A DNA stretch of 63,690 nt, filler included, from Atractiella rhizophila (lineage: Eukaryota), in assembly GCA_021432655.1 (NCBI GenBank). It is 5 parts of 5 records of this genome, joined end to end, with 100 filler letters (N's around TTAATTAATTAA, not from the genome) between each part and the next. Parts side by side here need not be neighbours in the genome. Positions count along the whole stretch, not along the records: positions 1 to 16,581 come from MU271898.1; 4 more parts are not named here. One strand, written 5' to 3'. The position numbers and the translations under genes are program-made. Each line of letters opens with the position of its first letter. Positions within the stretch are counted from its first letter, which is position 1. The notes beneath the pieces are model-generated. The model was not told the DNA's origin, did not search any database, and saw nothing but the letters and a program-made list of their open reading frames with translations. Of this stretch, positions 1-16,581 are shown in pieces.

Positions 1-1664
1 ATGGGACGCTAAATGGGCAGTAGAGCCTGGCAGGCTCAGGGTTCATGATTCTTTCTTTCTTGGTCAACAGCCACCATCGCTACAGACGACAACTTATCTT
101 CGGGCTCGCTGTCGCGGATTTCTGCCAAGCTATCTCTGTCCTTGTTCGTGTCTTTTTCATCCCTCATACATACCACTAAGCAGGAACAATGGTAGATCCC
201 CAGCGCTTACACCTTGGCGATCAATAAATGTTACTTCCCAGCCGGAAAAGCGTGTAACGTTTCTGGTTACCTCTACCCCATCTTCGCATTTGCTTCAACT
301 CTCTGGATACTTTTGTACGATTCTACTTTGAGCGACTGGCAGATAGCTGATGACCTCTTTAGGTTGGCAATTTCGACAGCTTTCCCGCTCATGAAACCCC
401 TGTCCCGTTACCACGAAGCTCTGAATCAAGTGAAATGGTTAATACCTTCCTGCTGGGTTGGGATCTACGGAACGTCGATCTTGTATGTAACAATTTGGTG
501 GTCTATCTTGGGGTATGCATCATCTTGCTCGAGAAATTCACTCAAATCGACATGTAGGCGCATCGAGCCTCTTGGAGGCGGGATGTGTGGTCTTCGATCC
601 AGCTCGAATACCGGTCTCCCAGGCTCGCTCATTCTCTTCCTTCCTCGGTATTCTCCCTCCCTCATCTCAATATGACGTTCCTTAAGTGGACTCGGATGTA
701 GAGCAATTACTTTTCTTGTGATCAGTTTTGTTTACGCGTTGATCCTCAATTTCCTGCGACGACGTTCCATCGATTCCAATGCGGACGACTGTGCATCGTC
801 AAAATCAACTTTGTGTTGTTCTCCCCCACCTTTCGAATGTCCTTTTGTTGGTCTGGGTGGACGAACGACTGTACGACGATTAGAGAGCGGTTGGCCAGGT
901 GATATACCTGATGACGTTTTCTGCAGCGGTATGGATCGATTGAGAGGAGTGAACACGATAGAAAGCGATGGTACATTGGTTGGGGAGAGCACGGAAGAAC
1001 TGAGGAAGATGGTTCAGGATGACAGAGAGAAAGGACGTGAAACCACTCTTTGTTCAGATAGGCAGCCTGCGATCCGATTCTTTTGCCTTCTGTCGAGCCC
1101 CCCATCCGCTCATCAGTGCAAGATGAACATCGGGACGCAGATTTCGCACGCGACTCTCAGGTTGGACAAACATCACAGAAGAGGAAACTTAGCCCAGCTG
1201 AGATGAGCCGGACCGTGCCTCAGCTCATGATGTTGTACCCAATTGCCGTTTGTCCTGCCATCTTACCCTGAATTGTGAGACTGACGAGAGGACAGTATCT
1301 GCTGCTCTAATTCCCCTTAGCCTGATACGAGAAGCCTATCAACTTGCAGAGCATGAACGAATCCCTTACCTGTCAGCAATAGGAAGGTTCCTGATTTTTA
1401 GTCAAGGCTTTGTCCATGCTGTATGCTGTTCTCATCTCATGTCGTTCAGTGCTCATCAAGGCCTGCGCGCAGATGATCTACGCTGTTGTCGAGTACGGCT
1501 TTAGGAACTCTTCTGGGAGTGTAACATGAGAGATTTCTGATTATTTGTCTTGATGCTTTGATGTGTGCAAGAATCCGGTTGTAGAGATGAAGAACGGTGT
1601 TTTGTATTGCAATTGAAGAGATACCACATTTTATCATCAAACACGCCTCAGACTTGAACTGCTG

Positions 1665-2161
1665 TCACCTTACAAAGTACCACTCCTGCCACCATCCCAA
1701 CGTCAACCAAACCAAAGTGAGCACATGGACAGTCATAGCCATCTTAAGAGCAGGGCTTCTCCAATTAGTCGTCCTATAGAATCTCCACTCAAGGGTCCAA
1801 AAGACGACAGCGACGGCCAAAGTGAAAGTAGCGATCTCATACACCTGTTGATTCCCCAAATGATACGCTGCATACAGTCTCGCGAAGCCAGAAATCATAG
1901 TCCATCCGCCGAATTGGCGCGCTGAGAGCCCGGTCACTTGTCCTGGAACAAGGGGGAACATTTCGAGTGAGGATGGCGGAGGTGCGACGGGGGAGGTGCT
2001 GGAGAAGTAGGAGAGGTAGGTGTTGAGAAAGCAGAGGAAGGCAATCTGATTTTATAGATGGATAGTTTCGGTGAATTGAGGTTTGGAAGCGTGAGGAGAG
2101 TGTCGAAACTTACGAAAAGAAACCAATAAGGCAACAGCCCGTTTTCTGTTGAGGGTAGCAT
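1665..2161 (-). CDS. ERG28: Ergosterol biosynthesis scaffold protein Erg28 (2 exons, intron ~2046-2113)
   Basis: Spliced product reads MLPSTENGLLPYWFLF / IAFLCFLNTY...VTGLSARQFGGWTMISGFARLYAAYHL..VYEIATFT..WTLEW, matching Erg28 motifs (LLPYW, VTxLSARxFGxWT, RLYAAY). GTAAGT..CAG intron. The start could lie further upstream. Confidence 0.85.
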
Positions 2162-3763
2162 GTCTAGCAAACTTTGTCCCAAAATGTCCAAGAGAATGCG
2201 GTACAAGTAGTGGATTTCCAAAGGTCGTTCAAACTTGATGACAGGAATTATAAACAGCCAGCTGGCCCGTATCTGCTGAGTGCCCGCATGTACGAGTACT
2301 AGTAAACTAGTCGGTTTTAATGTTGGCCACTAGAGTCATTAGCCGAAGGGCCTGAATTTCCCTGAACTTCAAAAATCTATCCGTAAGCTATCCGTCCTGA
2401 GGTGGTGGCCCTGCTGTGGCGCACAGTGATTGCCAGCCGCCCAATACTAATCTCATTCGTTCTTTCAATAAATAGTAGCGGCACAGTATTTTTCTCGAGT
2501 CCAACAAGCAAATTGGACGGGAAACGGCATGGGGTATCCACACAGGATAGTGCATATCAAATGGTGCATGTAGGCTGATCCTGGACGACATCACGCCTAA
2601 AGTTATGAAGAATTATTATTGACATTTGGATAAACACTATTCTTCACTTCACGCTTGAGAAGAAATTGCAAGGCGAGCGAGCATACCGTCACACTCAATC
2701 ACAGATGTAGGCCGTGCCTGCTCTGCCTCGATGATGGCGTCTAGTTCTACGATAAGTTGCCAGTCATTTTGGTCGACAGCCCACTTTCATCCACCTTTTG
2801 CTCCTCACAACATCAGCGAAGCTTTCGCTGAGGACTCAGAACAGAACATCACGCAGAGTTGGGGTGCTTATCACGCTTTCTTTCACGTAAACTATCACGG
2901 CTACGAGGTCCCGAGTCAGCTTTTTAGGGTGACAAAAGCACAAAAGAGGAAGCTAGAAGCTTATTCTATTGAAGATTAATGCATGATTCTGCGTGAGCTG
3001 AACAACGAACAGGTTCGCAGTCTCATTCACCAATGAAGAGGTTTTGCAATTTTCTTTTTGTTTCAGATTCGGTTGCATAGGCTGATCCTCTCTACTTGTT
3101 CCGTTACTCTTGCAAACATTACGCTCATAGTACCTTTATGAAATATCAAGAAAACTCATACTCATTGTCCATTCCTTGATGTTCTTGATTTCCTCATCGT
3201 TCTTTTGTACAAAAGTGACACGAAGACAATCTCGGGATCTTGGAGAAAAAAATATATGATTTGTTTATGAAACCGTCATGAAAGGCTCATCCGCTCCCCG
3301 CAACAACAAAAAGTAAGGGCAAGGGCCGAAAGGAACCCCCCAACCAAAATGAAAAAAACCAACAGCCTAACCCCCTAACTTAAAAACTCCAAGCGACTTC
3401 AAATAGCAGGAGATAGCATACCTCTACCTCGCACCTTTCTTAGGCCGTTTGAACTCATAACCCTGCCCTGCCGCCAGTAGTGACGCGGTCAATATAAGAA
3501 TCCCTGCCGAATCCATCCATGCGGCACCCTGGACATTCCTCTCCGCCACTTTCCTGTACACATAAGATCGTAAGAGGCTTCCCTCTACTCTTCTTCCAAC
3601 TCTAGCATCTAGCATTGTTCTTCCTTCGTCGTTCGATTGGATGACCTCAGCCTTCTAACCAACAACACAACTTCTCCACTTCAGCTTGACAACTTTTCTT
3701 CACAAAGCAACACTTCTGCACTGCTGGACTGAACTTAGCCCAACTACTTCCCTCGCCAGCACG

Positions 3764-6691
<2,928 letters not shown>

Positions 6692-6955
6692 TGTCGGGTT
6701 AGATAATCTATTATCAAAAGTGGATATTTACTATCTTAGAGAGTCATAATATACATGTCCGCTGTCACATTACTTGATTGGGTTGGGATTTCGAAGGCAT
6801 CAATGCCGGTTAGGTTACTGAAACAATGCTTAAGTGAAATCAATGAAAGAAGACCGAATTAACGACGAAGGAGCTGAACTGAACAGGGAGCAGTCATAAG
6901 CCTGCTCCTCGACCTCTGGACTCCACCACCCACTCTCCATTGAGGTCTGGATCGA

Positions 6956-9900
6956 CTACTGCATCATAGAGGAATCTCCGTTCCCATTCAGAGGTCGAAA
7001 GGTCAATCCTCTCTGTTGGACATCTGCCCTTGGAGCAGAAGGTGTCGCAGTGCCAGACGGTGAGGGATCAATGACGATCATTTCTCCTGATCGTTGAGGA
7101 GATAAATTTGTGTTCAGCGACGCGAATTCCTCCTCTGTCTTGACGGGGATATCGAGGCTCTCTTGTAGATAGAAAGGCTCCTCTTCAGTGTGAACACGAG
7201 TATCTAGAGGTCGAGCGTTGGGCTCATCGGATGGTAGCGCAACTGGGATGTCATCCTCGCCCGAACCCTCAATAGCGGAAGCATTTTGTAATGCTCGAGT
7301 GATAGTGGACTGAGAAACTTCAACTGCGACGTCTACTGGGATATCAGGTTGTCCATCTTGCTCTTGAAACTGCAATCCAGGCCCTGTCTCCGTTGAAGAC
7401 TGATCCATTTGATCTGCCTCCTGCGCTGTCGATGCTGGCTGCATTCGGCCTTCTTGTTGCTGCATGACCTCTAGTTCAAGGGGATGAAGTTCCAAAGGCC
7501 TGTCACCATCGACACTTTCAGAATAATTTTGAAGAGAGGGAGGGGTGGAACGAACCTTCGGATCCATTTGCCGTCCTCTGCTTGAACAAACGAACTTTTG
7601 GCTTGTCCAAACCACTGTCTGACCTGGCCAGCACTGACACCTATCCTCAGGGCGAGCGACTCTCTCTCCGACGGTGAAGCAAAGCCATGATCCCTGACCC
7701 ATTCCTCCAGCGATCGTTGAGCTAGAATCCAAAGCGACCCATCAGACCGCTTAAGGTTAGATGGGAAGGGGAAAGACGGACCATCAGCTGACATCGGGAG
7801 TTTTCTCCTCGTCTGCTTTCCTTGCGGCTTGGAGGGTTTGTCCCTCCCGGTCCCCCAACGATTCAACCTAGCCAACCCAAGACGTCAGCTTGAGCGGGAC
7901 GGTGTTGAGTGACGCACGCGGCTGGAACGTAGGGCCCGCTCCCACTCCTCTTCCTCGCTCCATTAAACCAACTCTGCACCTGCAGCTTTGTCAAGCCAGT
8001 TTTTTGAACCAGCTCAGCAACTTCTTGAGGTGTGGGCTTCAGGGTGCGGACTGCGGTGGCCTCGAGCTCATTCAATACTACATGTTAAGGGCCACAATTG
8101 GTCATGATATAAAAGGAAAGAAGGGAATGACGAACTGGCTTCTGAGAAATGTGAACCCCTGGTCTGCATGACTGGCATAGCGGGAAGCTGCATCTCTCCT
8201 GCTGCATCCTTCTCTCCCGATACACCTGTACCTTCTCCTTCTTCTGCTTCTCCGACCACAGCATCTCCCTCTCCGCTTCTGAGCACCTGCACATTCACGG
8301 GTTGGCCCTTGATGCTATTCCGTATGCCCATTTTGAGTCAGCAAGCTATTTTCCCCACATAGGAAAAGGAGCGAGGGGGATGGATACCTGAGCACGCCAC
8401 GGGACTTGAGGGAACGCCTCAGATGACAAAACCAGGCGTCTACCTGTCTGAGGGACAGTTGGGTCATTTGGCTCAACTGCTTCTTGCTCTCCTTCAACGG
8501 GTACGCGCCGTTCATTTCCACCCACGACGAAAGGACCTGGATCACTGTCATTCCGCGACGCGCTCATAAGCCCTTCGCTCATCGGGGTAGCAGGATAGAA
8601 AACATAAAAGGGAAGACGTGGACACACCCTCCGCGGGATAAGGCTTTCTATGCACTTCTCCTAGTAACCTCGGCTCCTCTCCGCCTCCAGCTCCAACGGT
8701 TTCCCGCTTCCCTGCACCACCACCATTACCATCAAGAGAGAACCCATTCTCCGCTGCGAGAGGGAAGGTTGGACCGGAAGGAGGGACGAAATCGCTCTGG
8801 TCGTTGAGAAAACTTGTTGATGCGACGGGGTTTGTCTCCTCCATCGAATCGGAGGGTTGTGGTGATTGGTCAAGTGAATGTTGTTGCACGTCAGGAGGAG
8901 GGGGAGGTTGTGCTGGAGGGAGAGGTGCCACCCTCCTGGCCCATGCTAACCAAGCCTCGAGGTCTTCAATTTCGATGTTGGCTTGTGCACAGAGGTCCTC
9001 TTTCACGTCAATTGAGGGATAAGGGAAAGAGATATGGTCTTCTATCCAATCTCTCAAGATCGAAGCAGCTGCCGCCATACCAACCGTAGGTTAACGTTGT
9101 AAAGATAAGAAGTAACTATGGAACGAACAGGAAGTTGGAAGTGGCGGTGGAAGTGGATGGGTCGGGATGAACCTGTCCCCTGCAGCGCGGAAGAGCCATT
9201 CATGAATGCGTTCTAGCGAGATCTCCAAAGTCGCACAAAAGTGCGCTTTCTCGTCCGGAAACAGGTATGGAAAGGCAAGATGAGAGGCATGCCACGACAT
9301 CAGTTCCGTGAGAGCTGTTAGAAATAGACCAACGTTAGAACGTTTGCTAGAAGGAGAGGAAAAGCACTCACCTGCAGTAGGTAGGAGATGACGGGTGAAC
9401 CAGTCCCGAACTTTTGTGATTGACCATCCCGTTTTACTACTTAGCTCTTCAAGCTGTTCGTTCGATGGTGTCCACTCTTCTCCTCCCCAATTACGCTCTC
9501 TAAAGCTGCACAGTATCTCCTCCACCTCTCTCGAGTCCTCAACTGCCTCTACCCGTGACGCGTTTTCCACATCTATATCCGCCAAATTGAAACGACCTTC
9601 ATCCCAGGCAGTTTCGAAAGCAGGTTGGTAAGAAACCGAATGATGGACCACTCCACTTTTCTCCAAAAACCAATCTCGAATACTCTCCCCGTTCAACGCC
9701 GTCTTCCTCCTCAAAGACTCCATCTCTTCTCCTGCGGGCACACCAACGTCCAGATGCGCCTCCCTCCATTCTTCTAGTATCCTTTTCGCGGTCGCAGGGA
9801 TTGAACGCGGATTCTTCCTCTTCATCTTCGACGGCCCTTCGCCTGTGTCTTGGTCTGGATTGTCCCGCGACGCTTCCGACGCCACCGCTTGGGTGCGACG

Positions 9901-10060
9901 ACGCTTGGGACGTCGGGGAATGGCGGTCGGCGCTGGTCCAGGGGGTCGATCGACGGGTCGAGGTATAGTCATTGTTATGGCGGTTTGTGTGCTGGAGCAA
10001 GTTAGCATTTCACCCCTACAAAAGGCTGTGAGGAAGTGCTTACGTCCGAGCCAAGTGCAT
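6956..10060 (-). CDS. Multi-homeodomain protein, seven tandem TALE-like homeodomains, ~851 aa, 10 exons
   Basis: Introns at 9992-10043, 9315-9371, 9069-9128, 8545-8627, 8315-8387, 8078-8135, 7868-7917, 7722-7781 and 7500-7555 are all GT..AG and phase-compatible, giving a continuous 2556-nt ORF. The pattern L..W....(PYP)...L...T.L....V..W[FL] recurs seven times (e.g. ILRDWIEDHISFPYPS..LEAWLAWARR; LSQMTQLSLRQVDAWFCHLRR; KTGLTKLQVQSWFNGARKR). The first exon is the least certain; alternative ATG at 9972. Confidence 0.82.
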
Positions 10061-10934
10061 ACGATGCTGGCTCAGATGATATCGCTGGAGAAGTTTCTTA
10101 TTATTTAACAAGATGGTCGATTATATTCCAAGTTCTAACCTTATTGAACGGTCAAATTTTATCTTTTCTTCCGCCCGCAACTACTGCTGCGGTCGCAATG
10201 TTATTGGGATCAAGATGTCTTCTTTCTTTGGATATCATACATGTCATATATCATGCGTTGATGCTACACCTCTGATTTCCCAGTCTCCTCTGGGTGGAGG
10301 AGTATGAAAACTCGCACCCTGTCCGCACCCATAGATACAGCTGCCCTTGTGTCCTCGAAAGCTTGGCTGCCAGTGCTTCTCTTTGCACTATTTGGTCTCT
10401 TCAAGCAACGGTGATTTATGCACAAAGCGTCAAACAGCCTAGCTTGAAGTTATATGGGCTCAGAAATGGGTTTTACTTCGCCGTGGCTCCTTGTTCTACC
10501 TCATTCCATTTCTCGGATTGTGGCAGCAAGCTTGCATCTATTTCTGCTCATCCAAAGGACAAAGGAACGGATAGGATGTCAGCTCACCCGTCAGGGATTA
10601 TTGGAGAGCACGAGAGCCGCTCTAGTGCTCAAGGAGATCAGTTGCTAATTTCCTCAGAAAAGATGCATCACGTCTTGAGTAGCCGACAACCCTTCTTTGC
10701 TTTAATATCCAGGACATGAAATCGACGTGATGTCATGATCCAGAATCAATAGACACGTACCTATGATGTAGAAGACCCACCTATGTTGTAGACTCTAAGT
10801 GATCCTTTGCAAGAAATGTCGCTTCATGGCCAGAAGAGAACTCAACTCATGCTATTTGTGCTATGCCAACTGTAAATAACTGAGCTGAGAGAGACGGACA
10901 CCATCAGTCCCGTCATACGGAGCGACATCTCATC

Positions 10935-11124
10935 TCTCAGAACAGCATCAGCTGCGCAACATTTTGACCACAAACTAGTAGCTGTTGGGAACTCGGATCA
11001 CAATAAAAGCCCAGAGACCAGGCTTCGTTCCCGTATGTTAGCACGAGACGCTTTCTCAGAACAACACCAGCTGCGCCACATTTCTGACCATGAACTAGTA
11101 ACTGGTTGGGAACTCGGATCACAA
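10935..11124. repeat. Two diverged ~70-bp direct repeats (10935-11003, 11054-11124)
   Basis: TCTCAGAACAgCAtCAGCTGCGCaACATTT..ACTAGTA.CTG.TTGGGAACTCGGATCACAA occurs twice, ~119 bp apart. Confidence 0.7.
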
Positions 11125-11768
11125 CAATGTGCGGCACGTCACAGTCTAGGCTGCAAATTCTCGCCAATCATTAATCATTCATCGTAGAGTCCCTAGGCTC
11201 CCAACGAAACGAAACGAACCTCGCTGTACCCCGCGCGGTGCATCTCATCCATGGATAGGTTTTTAGGAGTATGACATAATGGATAATGAAATTCGGAAAT
11301 CGAAGCCTGATCCCATCGCCTTCGCTAACCATTGCGTAACATTTTTGGAGTCGACTTTGTCAAGTCAAGAGGCAGACTCCCTTGCACGACCTGAAAGGAG
11401 CACAGTGTTGCTTTGTACTGTACCTTTGTCAACTTGTGTCAATTAAGTACTACAATCTCTTGAGCATGACAATCCCACTACTGGAATCCGCAACCATGCA
11501 ACGACAGTGTGAATAAATAAGTGACAAGCAAGGAAAACGTTTCGAAATGCGGCCAAGTGCCCAGGTGCTTTGCGACCTTTTTTTAGCGCAGCGCACATTT
11601 CAATCGGCCCCTTGCCATTTTGCCGCCCTGGCTTTTTAAAACCACCAACAAAAAGGGGCACTCGTTCGCTCAGTCCGACACTCGTCCTTGTCTTTACTTG
11701 CAGGCTACAAAGCCACGACCCTCCCTTATCCAGCTACACGCTCTTTATCCACCTAACCAGCTATCAAC

Positions 11769-13885
11769 ATGCTTCTCGTTCCCCTCCTTGCTCTGGGCTC
11801 CACCGCCTTAGCGCACATGGGCCATCATCATGCTCACCATCACAACATCGCAAAGAGGGCAACAGCTGCTCCTACCGACGAGGCTTCTGAGGCCAAAATC
11901 AGCGGCGCAACGGACGAGTGTACCGCTTACAATGATCCCATCGTCTCCTCCTTGGTGAGTCTTTTCTTGGGATTTGGGGTTGCACGTCCTGGTGGGTTCG
12001 GTGCGGTCCGACAACCCGAAGAAGAGTCCAGCAAAAAAACAAGTCAAATAGAAGAGGACTATTCTATCTTTCTTTTGCAATAATGCGAATCTGGTCCCGA
12101 TTCTAGTTCTGGACATATGACCTTTAGCGTAACGGCTGACTGACTGAGGACATGTTGACAGGCGAAGAGTTACCCTGCCAACTGGGAAATCGCCTCCATT
12201 CCCGACAGCGACACGGACGCCCAGGCGCTCTTCAAGGCTCTCCAACCCAATATTCCCAACATCAAAGTGAAGGGAACTCCCCAAGGAGACTTCTCCGCTT
12301 TCACTCCCACCTACGACTCTTCTGACCCTGGTGCGTCCTATCCATCCTCCTCTCCCATCGAGAAATAAAATTGATGGTGTGACGATTGTAGATTGTTGGT
12401 GGACTTACAAGCAGTGCACGTCTGGAAAGACCAAGGGCGTCATTGGTGATCTTACCACTTGTAACGAGGTAAATCTTTCGTCTCTGTGCTCGAAGGACGA
12501 CAACTGACAAAACTGATGGATATAGCCGAACACTTGGGGATTGACCTATGACGATGGACCAAACTGCTCCCACAATGCTTTCTACGACTACTTGCGGGAA
12601 CAAAACCAGAAGGCGACTATGGTTCGTTGACTTCTTTTCTTTTAAAGACATTGTTTTCATTCTGACCTTGATACAGTTCTTCATCGGGTGAGGAGACAAT
12701 ATGTCCTGCTGCTTGAGAGCTGACGTTGGTCAAGGTCTAATGTCATGAACTGGCCTTATCAGGCTCAGCGAGCCTTGGTTGATGGTCACGAAATCTGTGT
12801 GCACACGTAAGTCGCACTTTTCTTTTAAAAAATTGCAGAATGCTGACTTTGGAGCATAGCTGGTCGCACCGGTATGCCTCGCATTCCTGGCTGCAATAGT
12901 TGAGACGAATTGACTATGTGCGGCAGATACATGACAGGATTGACGAACGAGCAAGCCTTTGCTGAGCTCTATTACACCCAGAAGATCATCAAGGAAGTCA
13001 TCGGCGTCACTCCCAAGTGCTGGCGACCAGCCTTCGGAGACGTTGATGACAGGATCAGGTTCATTGCTCAGTCTCTCGGACTGCAAACTATCACTTGGGT
13101 CAGGGACATCTTGTAAGCCTTTCTTTCCATCATTTGTCAAGTGCCCAGCGTTGATACCGTGCCACAGCGATTGGAACTGGCCCGTCCTCGGACTCAAACA
13201 GATTGATGCCAACTACCAAGGCCTCATTGACGCAGCTGCGAATGGAACATTCAGCACTTACGGGTATGCTTCCCATCCTCTATGAGAGGAGTATCGTTTA
13301 TTGAAGACTTTGGTAGACCCATCGTCCTGACCCACGAGATTGATGGAGAGACGATGGAGAAGGCGATCACCTGGTTGCCCAAGGTCCAGTCCGCCTTCAA
13401 GGCCGTCGTGCCTGTCGGTGTCTGTCACAACGTGACGCACCCCTACATGGAGGACGAGTACGAGTACCCCGACTTCAAAGCCTACGGTTCGTTCCTCCCC
13501 TCCTCTTCATTCCATCTCTCTGACCAATTGATTCTTGGATGCAGTTGCTGGAACAACGCAACTCAGCCTTCCAGGCGTAACCGAGACCCCAGTCGCCAAG
13601 CTCGACCTGCCCCTCTCAGCAGGCAACTCCAATCCGATCACGAACGCGCTCTACACTCCCGACTCGGGAGCTGCCACCGGAGCCGCCTCGTCCCCACAGC
13701 AGACGTCGTCCAGCAGCTCGTCCTCCTCCTCCTCCTCGAAGACGACTGGAGCTCAAAGCGCGGCGAAGAGCGGAAGCAACTCAGCTGCTGCTGACCATTC
13801 GTCTGCTCAGGCTTTCGGTCCTATGATGTTGGGATCGCTCGCGGCTGCTTTCGTCGCTGTTGGAGCCGCTATCGTGGCTATTTAA
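11769..13885 (+). CDS. Secreted GPI-anchored chitin deacetylase (CE4/NodB; Cryptococcus Cda/MP98-like)
   Basis: Signal peptide; CWWT; CE4 motifs TWGLTYDDGP, HEICVHT/WSH, CWRPAFGDVDDRIR and IVLTHE; Ser/Thr-rich stalk and hydrophobic GPI tail (GPMMLGSLAAAFVAVGAAIVAI*). Confidence 0.93.
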
Positions 13886-14309
13886 TTGACATTTCGGTTG
13901 GCTTTCTTTTTGGTTTGGATGAGCTTGAAATGCTGTCGCTGTCGCTGTTTGAGGTTGGAAGCGTTGATGTTAATGTTATTATTCGTTTCGAGATATATTT
14001 GGGCTGGTCGCACAGAGAACAATGCAAAAAGTCCAAGACTTTTAATCAATGACAGAGTACATAACAGGACAGGACCAAGCAAGTAACAAGTTCAGGAATA
14101 GCAAATCCAGCTGCAGTCAATGTTAGATGGAAGTCAGGTTACAGCAAGTAGACTGCGTGTGTGGTTTTCAACGGCCGTCCGGATGTTTGTAGCCTTCCAG
14201 CCAACAAATCTTACGCGTCCGCCAAAAACGACAAAGTCGACAGTTCCAGCCTCTCTTCTAGTCGTCTCTCCTACCCAACATTTATAGAGCTCTAAGGCGT
14301 ATTACAGCG

Positions 14310-16148
14310 ATGTCTCAAGACCCCATCTCCTTCCTCGAGACGCTGTCTTCTTCTCCCGACTTCCCACCATCACTCCAGACTTACATTGGACAATTCGGGA
14401 CTTTGTACTCCAAAAAGTGACATATCTTCTTTCCTGTACCGTATAGATTTTGCACATACTGATGCCTGTTGTGTGGTTGAATAGATTATGGTACCCTCTG
14501 ACACTTTCCCTCCTCCAATTTCAAGCCCAGAAAGAGTCCTCTCCGATCCTCATCCCCCTCTTCGAACATTTCATCCTTCATTTCGCCAAGAACTTGAACA
14601 GTCTCAAACTGGTAGAACTAGGTGTGGCAACGGCAAGGGAGTTTGCAGGTCTGTCCTCTCCCTTTCTTGCGTCCCCTGTCCTTCTTTGTCATTGTTCACC
14701 CCATCTAATCCAGAGAGTGAGATTGAACTGATGATACTGATGAATACAGACCCTTCAACATCTCTCCCTTTCCTACAGACACTCGTTCCACTCCTCCCTA
14801 CTCCGCCTCAAGAGAAGGCACCTGAGGCTTATGTCCTCTTGACCATCTCAGGAGCACACTATTCTTTACTTCTCGGTACATCTTCATTCGCTCATCTCCC
14901 TCGCCCAGTTGCTACGAGGAATAGGATATACAGTGCTGATGCGTGGGTCGATAGGTGACTTGGATGCGACAAAAAAGCAGATCGACGAGTGTATGACCAT
15001 ATTGGATGGTTTGAGTGGCGGGAAAGAAGGTGCGGATGTAGGCGTTAGAGGAGCGGTTTACAGAGTCGCTGGAGACTATTACAAGGTGCTTTCTCTCTCT
15101 TGTGCCTCCCACTTCCCGCTTTGTTGCGTCCATTCCCAACGCGTCTTTGTCCCTTCCTTTCTGTGACAGAGCAAGAGATACTGAACAATCCTGTTGGGGG
15201 AACAGGCCAAATCCGACTATGTCCTCTACTACCGCACCTCCCTCCTCTTCCTCTCCTGTCTCCCCAAACCGCTCTCATCTTCTCCTATTCCTCGTGAAGA
15301 ACTCGTCGGACGGGCTCACGATTTAAGCATCTCCGCCTTACTTGGGGAGAGTGTCTATAATTTCGGAGAACTCGTATGTCCACACCTTCTCCGTGCCATC
15401 TCCCCTCGTATGATCCACTGAAATCATTTTGGAAATGAAATAGTTGCTTCATCCTATACTGAGTTATCTGGAGGGCACAAATCACGATTGGCTACGACAG
15501 TTATTGTTTGCGTTCAATGAGGGGAGCATTGGGAAATTTGAGACGTTGGCACCGTATTTGGAGAGAGAGGTATGTTTCTACTTTTTACCTTCGCTTCCTC
15601 CTTTCGTTCGACTGTGTCTTTGGTCAATATTCTCTGTCGCCCTTCCTGACTCCGATTGTTCGCAAATGCCGTTGCTGATCAATCGACGCTGTTGTCATGA
15701 ACAGCCGATCCTCCAAGAATCGTATTCCTTCCTTCGGCAAAAAATCTGCCTCATGTCCCTCCTTGAGTCAGTCTTCAACCGTTCCTCTTCTCAACGGTCC
15801 AACATGAGTTTCATGGACATTGCGAGCGAGACTGGGCTACCGGGGGATGAAGTGGAGCATTTAGTCATGAAATCCTTGTCGTGAGCCTACTCTCTATCCC
15901 GCCCCCCTTCTGAGTAGAAAGACACGTTATTGATGAGTGTGTGAATGGATAGGCTCGGTTTGATAAAAGGCACCATCGACCAAGTGGACATGAAGGTCAA
16001 AGTGTCCTGGCTGCAGCCGAGAGTGTTAGGGAAGAGAGAGATAGGGGAAATTAAGAGAAGACTAGGGGAGTGGGAGGAAGGCATAGGAAGGGTGGAGAAG
16101 TCCCTGCAGAGTGGAAAGGAAGGCCAGGTGGCAGAGGTGGGTGCATAA
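14310..16148 (+). CDS. RPN9: 26S proteasome lid subunit Rpn9 (PSMD13), multi-exon
   Basis: LYSK/KLWYPLT, LFEHFILHFAKNLNSLKLV, YRVAGDYYK, RAHDLSISALLGESVYNFGEL/LLHPIL, FLRQKICLMSLLE, EVEHLVMKSLS/LGLIKGTIDQVD..VSWLQPRVL (PCI domain). Confidence 0.95.
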
Positions 16149-16581
16149 AGAATTATAACTGGTGGAATGAAAGCTTTATGAAGTTCAGAAAAGACGCATG
16201 AAAGGTCCCAAAGATTTTGCCTTGCGTACTGGTGAGTAATTTGGAATAATAATTGGGTATTGGCAACAGTACTTTTTCTACCCTTGCTTTCTCTCTTGAG
16301 TTGAACTCAATCTCTACCTACAGCAAGGGACAAGCTGCAAGCTGAGAATTTACTGCATGCTTGAAGACATTATTTGCGGAGCTCAGCCACGTACGAGAGA
16401 CACAACAAGACGTCAGGTCGACGAAGCAAATGACCCTTTCTACTCGAACGTTTATTGTAATCGGATCTTCCTCGCGATGAGGGTGGACATGGACCATCTT
16501 TGAACCCTCTTCAATATGGGTCCTGAAGCTTGATGACCCATGTTCAGCATCCGTGTCGCGATAATAGGCCGGTTTGTCCAG

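Follow-up and report, generated by a model that had tools for sequence, protein, structure and literature searches.

A seven-homeodomain gene of Atractiella rhizophila with a phase-1 intron at the same codon in five units

Results

A gene encoding seven homeodomains (HDs) lies on the minus strand of a window of 63,690 nucleotides (nt), filler included, in which five parts of the assembly GCA_021432655.1 of Atractiella rhizophila (Pucciniomycotina, Atractiellomycetes) are joined end to end. Since only positions 1-16581 of the window are on the contig of the gene (C719), its more distant neighbors there are no evidence of linkage. Five of the HDs, units 3 to 7, are split by a phase-1 intron at the same codon, and these units very probably descend from one intron-bearing unit of the TALE class (three-amino-acid loop extension). 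The features of the gene are given below, in the direction of transcription; supporting splice joints are from the contigs of one public run (X1) and the mapping is that of a database protein (P0001), both described thereafter.

10060-6956, minus: whole HD gene (ATG 10060, stop 6956), 10 exons, 9 introns, 851 amino acids; allele of P0001 (852 amino acids)
9992-10043, minus: intron 0 (52 nt, phase 2), after a short first coding exon; X1 joint 9991/10044, P0001 mapping
9634-9822, minus: HD1, TALE-length loop (+3), basic arm, Glu51, charge +2, no codon-12 intron; phmmer stretches over query 55-124, no Pfam stretch of its own
9372-9558, minus: HD2, loop about +5, Arg51, charge -5, no codon-12 intron; helix 3 continuous with the HD3 arm
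9315-9371, minus: phase-1 intron in HD3 codon 12, 57 nt, in frame and stop-free, thus retainable; X1 joint
9129-9314, minus: exon of 186 nt, phase 1-1, with the HD3 helices (TALE +3, Arg51, charge -3) and the proline-rich HD4 arm; its length is one HD period
9069-9128, minus: phase-1 intron in HD4 codon 12, 60 nt; X1 joint
8628-9068, minus: exon of 441 nt, phase 1-1, with the HD4 helices (best TALE match, Trp51, charge -6), a disordered linker and the HD5 arm
8545-8627, minus: phase-1 intron in HD5 codon 12, 83 nt; X1 joint
8388-8544, minus: exon of 157 nt with the HD5 helices (loop +1, His51, Arg5 and Arg53 kept, charge +5)
8315-8387, minus: phase-2 intron at HD5 codon 63, 73 nt; X1 joint
8078-8135, minus: phase-1 intron in HD6 codon 12, 58 nt; X1 joint
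7918-8077, minus: exon of 160 nt with the HD6 helices (standard length, Gly51, Arg53 kept, charge +3)
7868-7917, minus: phase-2 intron at HD6 codon 65, 50 nt; X1 joint
7722-7781, minus: phase-1 intron in HD7 codon 12, 60 nt (59 nt in the other haplotype); X1 joint
7556-7721, minus: exon of 166 nt with the HD7 helices (standard length, Gln51, charge +2)
7500-7555, minus: phase-2 intron at HD7 codon 67, 56 nt; X1 joint, P0001 mapping
6956-7499, minus: last exon, acidic tail of about 180 amino acids, predicted disordered, no Pfam match

The original prediction, made from the sequence alone, had placed five phase-1 introns at one and the same HD codon. Once these are spliced out together with 9992-10043, 8315-8387, 7868-7917 and 7500-7555, a single frame of 851 codons remains, and two further sources use the junctions as first read. 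P0001, a hypothetical protein of A. rhizophila, maps with identical junctions to contig C152, which carries a copy of the gene region ~97% identical to the window over 8.8 kb; at this identity the two copies are regarded as haplotypes. X1 is of a kind not on record and was used as contigs, which drop rare variants; it is taken as RNA because the contigs show splice joints, and a processed gene copy is unlikely, since the genome searches gave two copies only, both containing the introns. The contigs bridge every one of the nine introns, whose ends read CT..AC on the plus strand, and the joints at the codon-12 introns are 7721/7782, 8077/8136, 8544/8628, 9068/9129 and 9314/9372. A tenth joint, 8075/8136, has two letters in between and equals the 8077/8136 junction plus an adjacent base difference that matches the other haplotype (8076). 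Other acceptors for the last intron (7515, 7471, 7469 and others) were excluded by the P0001 mapping and the X1 joints. The five codon-12 introns are all GT..AG, with donors GTGAGT, GTTCGT, GTGTGT, GTTCGT and GTCCGT for HD3, 4, 5, 6 and 7, respectively. Relaxed 5' splice sites were observed between 7500 and 9128, three of the nine donors of the gene being GTTCGT and one GTCCGT.

Anchored on Leu16 and Trp48, which are present in all seven units, codon 12 is split after its first base in units 3-7. In each of the five, the intron codon lies seven residues ahead of HD position 19, and the numbering between the two is gap-free in units 4 and 5 against PKNOX1 and TGIF2LX. The spacing was thus read correctly from the outset, although the supposed helix-1 Trp at position 19 is Thr in unit 6. 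By an analytic bound, the chance that five of eight uniformly placed introns fall on one HD-relative base in five units is at most ~2.5e-10, and, with coincidence ruled out (~1e-10), intragenic duplication is the best explanation. A second common intron, of phase 2, follows helix 3 of units 5, 6 and 7 (HD codons 63, 65 and 67), which points to a block with two introns for those three units, and exons with phase-1 introns on both sides, as had been proposed, are limited to 9129-9314 and 8628-9068. By the standard of exon-duplicated repeats of the nebulin or DUX kind, in which successive repeats carry introns of equal position and phase, 5/7 units share the codon-12 intron and 3/7 the phase-2 intron as well. 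The repeats have little nucleotide similarity, as first noted: best local scores for the 21 unit pairs are 14-24, and five pairs have a shuffle p of 0.015 or less, without an alignable stretch; a repeat search found no direct repeats inside the gene. The five introns are themselves dissimilar, and the flanking exon bases have no common proto-splice motif.

The introns were also mapped onto an HD alignment, a check suggested with the prediction, and compared with 80 single-HD TALE loci from metagenome contigs, the best-scoring of 450. The codon-12 intron is found in 0/80. An intron right after Asn51 (51/52), with arm and helix 1 unbroken, is present in 26 of them (22 distinct; clearly genomic), 52 have an HD free of introns, being transcripts or intronless genes, and the remaining two, missed by the pattern, read through codon 12. 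Five other homeobox loci of the genome (C253/C1530, C41, C106, C197/C421 and C115) all read through codon 12, too. Among the loci compared, the codon-12 intron is confined to the array, which matches the prediction of duplication after a single gain. The 51/52 intron of the canonical basidiomycete single-HD TALE genes is in none of the seven units. One survey names in its text the TALE introns 44/45, 48(2/3) and, separately, 24(2/3), and its Figure S5 (five shared positions) may bear on codon 12 (PMC6219170); Table 1 of another lists a codon-12 intron, phase not given, for an unrelated ctenophore SIX homeobox (PMC2959044).

The phylogeny of the units, which had been proposed as a further check, was run on two sets. 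The first tree had 85 rows (7 units, 4 other HDs of the genome and 74 reference domains from 279 proteins) and 57 columns, and the end branches of the units in it measure 1.65-3.3 changes per site. The second had 45 rows under LG+G4, from which the values of the approximately unbiased (AU) test were also taken; left free, it groups HD3-5, without support values. Forcing HD3-7 into a clade costs 0.65 log-likelihood units (p-AU 0.57) and is not rejected; for all seven units the cost is 15 log units (p-AU 0.06), with an incomplete constrained search. Thus, the clade is not recovered in the free tree, its five-unit form stands unrejected, and, as the tree cannot decide, the signal rests on the introns. 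Pairwise protein identity of the units is 10-33%.

Asn51, Arg5 and Arg53 are DNA-contact residues of homeodomains. Asn51 is found in 0/7 units, Arg53 in 3/7 (HD4, 5 and 6), Phe49 in 5/7 (window haplotype), and the canonical Phe49/Asn51/Arg53 signature of the recognition helix was not found. In a survey of 279 proteins, a set biased by the queries used, Asn51 is present in 146/146 single-HD hits, in 104/117 domains of two-HD hits and in 106/339 domains of proteins with at least three HDs. Loop insertions from HD1 to HD7 are +3, +5, +3, +3, +1, 0 and 0, the three extra TALE residues being exact in HD1, HD3 and HD4; the PYP loop motif is in HD4 only (PYL in HD3, AYP in HD5), and the WFxN helix-3 motif in no unit. 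The net charges are +2, -5, -3, -6, +5, +3 and +2; among 131 single-HD TALE references the median is +5 and the range 0 to 8. HD2-4 are tightly packed and acidic, HD1, 5, 6 and 7 are basic, disordered linkers of ~20-85 residues separate HD4, 5, 6 and 7, and the sequence has basic runs resembling nuclear localization signals ahead of HD1 and HD7.

AlphaFold2, with an alignment of 40 rows, predicts seven three-helix bundles, with a predicted local distance difference test (pLDDT) score mostly of 85-97 in the blocks and below 50 in the linkers, and a disordered tail; for the whole model, the mean pLDDT is 62.5 and the predicted template modeling score (pTM) 0.33. The Foldseek matches listed for the whole model are homeodomain-containing chains, none at an expectation (E) value of 0.001 or less. 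By unit, the best matches in the PDB include PKNOX1 (HD4, E 1e-6) and TGIF2LX (HD5, E 5e-6). In P0001, PF05920 scores 135 bits and PF00046 74 bits; PF05920 is matched for HD2-7 and is above the cut-off for HD2, 4, 5 and 6.

Between the haplotypes, indels of a length not divisible by three are confined to introns 8315-8387, 8078-8135 and 7722-7781, and the sole exonic indel is of 3 nt. The HD codons differ by 2 nonsynonymous and 23 synonymous changes, a ratio of the nonsynonymous to the synonymous rate (pN/pS) of 0.03 (binomial p 3e-13 against neutrality), compared with 0.14 in the linkers, 0.23 in the tail and 0.10 over the whole coding sequence (16 nonsynonymous, 50 synonymous). The units are thus degenerate as classical DNA readers yet are being kept. 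The divergence from C152 (L027) is patchy: exons and introns at ~8390-8880 and ~9000-9230 show no or next to no differences, and 7720-8380 is strongly different, a pattern that suggests recent recombination or conversion tracts. On window 6800-10200, X1 has differences absent from both haplotypes (e.g., at 9192, 9490 and 9571, and a 9-nt insertion after 7241), and further alleles therefore exist.

Neither a canonical single-HD TALE gene nor a paralogue of the array turned up when the genome was searched by family scans, proteins and patterns, which gave only the array, its C152 allele and one gene like those of the HD1 mating-type class; the search ran exon by exon and the assembly may be incomplete, so that absence of a TALE gene is not proven. 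HD4 is the best match in the genome to basidiomycete single-HD TALE queries. The further gene (C253:57162-57284 and C1530:881-1003; L001, L002) has a single TALE-like HD, is nearly identical in both haplotypes and, as we take it, resembles mating-type HD1 factors; the surrounding 7.5 kb, scanned for motifs, showed no HD2 partner. No other homeobox match, and hence no divergent HD1-HD2 mating-type pair, was found on contig C719. On inspection, L051-L053 from the pattern searches, the short L012 and the proline-rich, apparently WASP-like L136 were rejected as homeoboxes.

Upstream of the array, 0.9 kb from its start codon, two imperfect copies of ~75 nt lie ~120 nt apart (10935-11127; 30-nt and 23-nt cores, 90-96% alike) and could be a promoter duplication. 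Its neighbors on C719 are:

3659-6700, plus: LETM1-like gene, convergent with and downstream of the HD gene (PF07766, E 2e-23, one exon)
14485-16000, plus: PCI domain matched weakly (E 0.001); the gene is probably that of a proteasome lid subunit

Discussion

Taken together, we consider it likely (probability about 0.7) that the locus encodes a transcribed, constitutively spliced, lineage-restricted multi-HD regulator that arose through tandem duplication of a TALE-class homeobox within the gene. The part of this reading that concerns HD3-7, the duplication of an intron-bearing unit, we hold with high confidence. A founder unit would have acquired the phase-1 intron where its N-terminal arm meets helix 1, and HD3-7 would be copies of it; for HD5-7, the block that was copied presumably also bore the phase-2 intron behind helix 3. 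HD1-2 may be older than the intron gain, may have lost the intron or may have entered separately. Later divergence would have taken the units to their present 10-33% identity and shortened the TALE loop in HD5 (+1) until it was gone in HD6-7. The original prediction of an old tandem duplication of an intron-containing unit is therefore retained for HD3-7, where the codon-12 intron and, behind units 5-7, the phase-2 intron speak for it, and does not carry over to units 1-2.

Several points weigh against this reading. HD1 and HD2 are uninterrupted at codon 12, and the intron evidence does not extend the duplication to them. The best PDB matches of HD6 and HD7 are standard-length HDs (paired, Pitx; MATa1), which alone suggests a mixed origin, and the free 85-row tree scatters the units (7 changes), with one origin in 0/200 bootstrap trees. 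No single-HD ancestor with a codon-12 intron was found among the loci compared, in a comparison that is biased, since taking the best-scoring loci favors genes unsplit at codon 12, and that stands without Pucciniomycotina, the closest named relatives of one TALE locus (L085) being Agaricomycetes. Also, the evidence of transcription comes from the single run X1.

As for function, the protein is pictured as a nuclear one in which disordered linkers string together folded beads. The basic units (HD5 and HD6, less so HD1 and HD7) would bind DNA or chromatin weakly, in a multivalent way and with low specificity, because no unit keeps Asn51; the packed acidic HD2-4 cluster would be a protein-interaction module, and the acidic tail may serve as a regulatory region. 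Going by residues and charges, such a division between basic units and an acidic cluster is tentative, and we would put it slightly below even odds.

The alternative that survives best is a conventional sequence-specific factor, several of whose HDs would read a long composite site as in DUX4, with substitute contacts in place of Asn51. Arg53 in HD4, 5 and 6, Arg5 in HD5, the strong constraint on the HDs and the basic runs ahead of HD1 and HD7 would all fit such a factor, and multiple HDs are one described route to higher specificity (PMC4901127). However, Asn51 is lost throughout, HD2-4 are acidic, and the disordered linkers between HD4 and HD7 set no fixed spacing (pTM 0.33), and we consider this reading doubtful.

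A different origin, in which TALE units (HD1, 3 and 4) and standard units (HD6 and 7) were fused and the intron spread by parallel gain or gene conversion, would account for the unequal loop lengths, for the best PDB matches that differ by unit and for the scatter in the free trees, and the ctenophore SIX homeobox is listed with a codon-12 intron of its own (PMC2959044). It is nonetheless improbable: the five introns are unlike each other and lack a common proto-splice motif, five hits on one base are expected at ~1e-10 by chance, the five-unit clade is not rejected, and the same loss of loops within an array is seen in the four-HD protein P0033 of Aspergillus multicolor.

The original prediction had further proposed that exons could be skipped in frame, and a combinatorial splicing cassette of this kind would give isoforms with different HD numbers or with arm/helix chimeras of different DNA specificity. 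The introns do lie exactly between arm and helices, and two of the eight internal exons, both of phase 1-1, can be skipped singly in frame (9129-9314, leaving 789 amino acids, and 8628-9068, leaving 704), as can five adjacent exon pairs, four in the HD5-7 region and the pair 9129-9314/8628-9068. The other six internal exons break the frame when skipped, and symmetric exons need no selective explanation, because duplication of an intron-bearing unit yields them anyway. No exon-skip joint is among the 10 joints in the X1 contigs, and one contig carries exon 9129-9314 with both neighbors, a weak argument given that contigs of one run drop rare variants, so that the missing joints are no proof of absence. 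The introns are short (50-83 nt), skipped exons make up 3% and intron retention 61% of fungal alternative-splicing events, and intron definition has been proposed for fungi (PMC3925392). Moreover, skipping 9129-9314 would change little, since the arms of HD3 and HD4 are nearly without basic residues (1 and 0, respectively, at positions 2-6). We therefore regard isoforms by exon skipping as very improbable; retention of the stop-free intron 9315-9371 is likelier, next to one main isoform.

That the array is a decaying, functionless duplicate, as its restriction to the lineage (only P0001 at E ≤ 1e-30) and its lost key residues might suggest, can largely be dismissed in view of an 851-codon frame open in both haplotypes, an HD pN/pS of 0.03, spliced contigs and intact predicted folds.

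Within the preferred reading, duplication of a TALE homeobox, the absence of a canonical single-HD TALE gene in the searches raises, without showing, the idea that the array replaced it. In an extended form, the array would be the only non-mating TALE gene of the lineage, a conserved single-HD factor amplified to seven Asn51-less units, with the standard-length HD6 and HD7 derived, as the shared intron would prove, from TALE HDs by stepwise loop loss within a single protein and the acidic HD2-4 acting as a non-DNA-binding pseudo-homeodomain scaffold or as a decoy for other HD factors. This is unlikely as a whole, and replacement is weakened by the lack of the 51/52 intron in every unit. If it were true, a general class of homeodomain proteins, so far undescribed and working by avidity or as scaffolds, would be marked by the recurrent Asn51 loss among unrelated multi-HD arrays.

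Among 1.84 billion representatives no full-length orthologue was found, P0001 being the only hit at E ≤ 1e-30; further searches yielded no closer protein, and a structure search of the Atlas had no match at 0.9 or above. The hits after P0001 are multi-TALE proteins from diatoms, ichthyosporeans and choanoflagellates. Like the Atractiella protein, the arrays compared (P0003, P0005, P0006, P0012, P0014 and P0033) have 4-10 TALE-type HDs, often without Asn51, but they are ~27-36% identical to it within the HDs only and give no sign of orthology. P0033, with both Asn51 loss and loop loss, places such arrays in fungi too, and multi-HD arrays with Asn51 loss thus recur. As a side observation, P0033, P0003, P0005, P0012 and P0014 are uncharacterized 4-10-fold TALE arrays of unrelated eukaryotes, mostly without Asn51, in a convergent pattern. 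Basidiomycete single-HD TALE factors, which we take to be of the Cup9/Tos8-like type, are like HD4 in the TALE loop and the PYP motif, but they keep Asn51, and in the 26 genomic loci codon 12 is uninterrupted and an intron follows codon 51.

In better-known systems, the closest parallel is the mammalian DUX family, derived from sDUX, where homeobox duplication was likewise recognized by an intron at an equivalent position (PMC3004920); DUX4 double-HD structures top the fold search of the Atractiella model, though weakly (E 0.06). DUX differs in that its HDs are two, of the PRD class, and its single-HD ancestor is known, whereas the array has seven TALE-derived units with a codon-12 intron and no Asn51, and no ancestor was found for it. 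CEH-100 and CEH-99 of Caenorhabditis elegans are also lineage-specific, with divergent, packed HDs (12 in CEH-100), but are of an animal and, in the part of the source available, come without a record of shared introns (PMC4448998), whereas constraint and splicing are observed for the Atractiella array. ZHX/HOMEZ proteins carry divergent HDs, four or five in number, of which one is predicted to adopt a conformation that disrupts DNA binding (PMC7144352), and are nearest in the Atlas structure search, at a template modeling score of ~0.2 only; unlike the Atractiella protein, chordate ZHX proteins have C2H2 zinc fingers. Spiralian TALE genes can also have more than one HD, but they have two and belong to an animal lineage; the multi-homeobox state was called previously unobserved for TALE genes in 2018 (PMC6118893). 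TALE proteins with several HDs have been described as rare. Fungi usually have fewer than 12 homeobox genes (PMC4901127), and, with most subscription papers beyond the reach of the search, no published work was found that deals with the gene or with multi-HD proteins in Pucciniomycotina.

The mechanism of origin, internal duplication marked by introns, is already known from DUX and from nebulin, with its repeated exon patterns whose borders lie inside domains (PMC1553488), and the array is not a new kind of system. What is new here is the combination of Asn51 in 0/7 units, loops that range from TALE to standard length and acidic units 2-4 with an HD pN/pS of 0.03. The gene offers a clean natural case of repeat divergence in which the intron record of duplication outlasts the faded protein signal, and one in which the TALE loop shortened from +3 to 0 and the key DNA contact was lost under continued purifying selection. 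It also makes testable the role of homeodomains that lack Asn51, a question common to ZHX, CEH-100 and many uncharacterized arrays.

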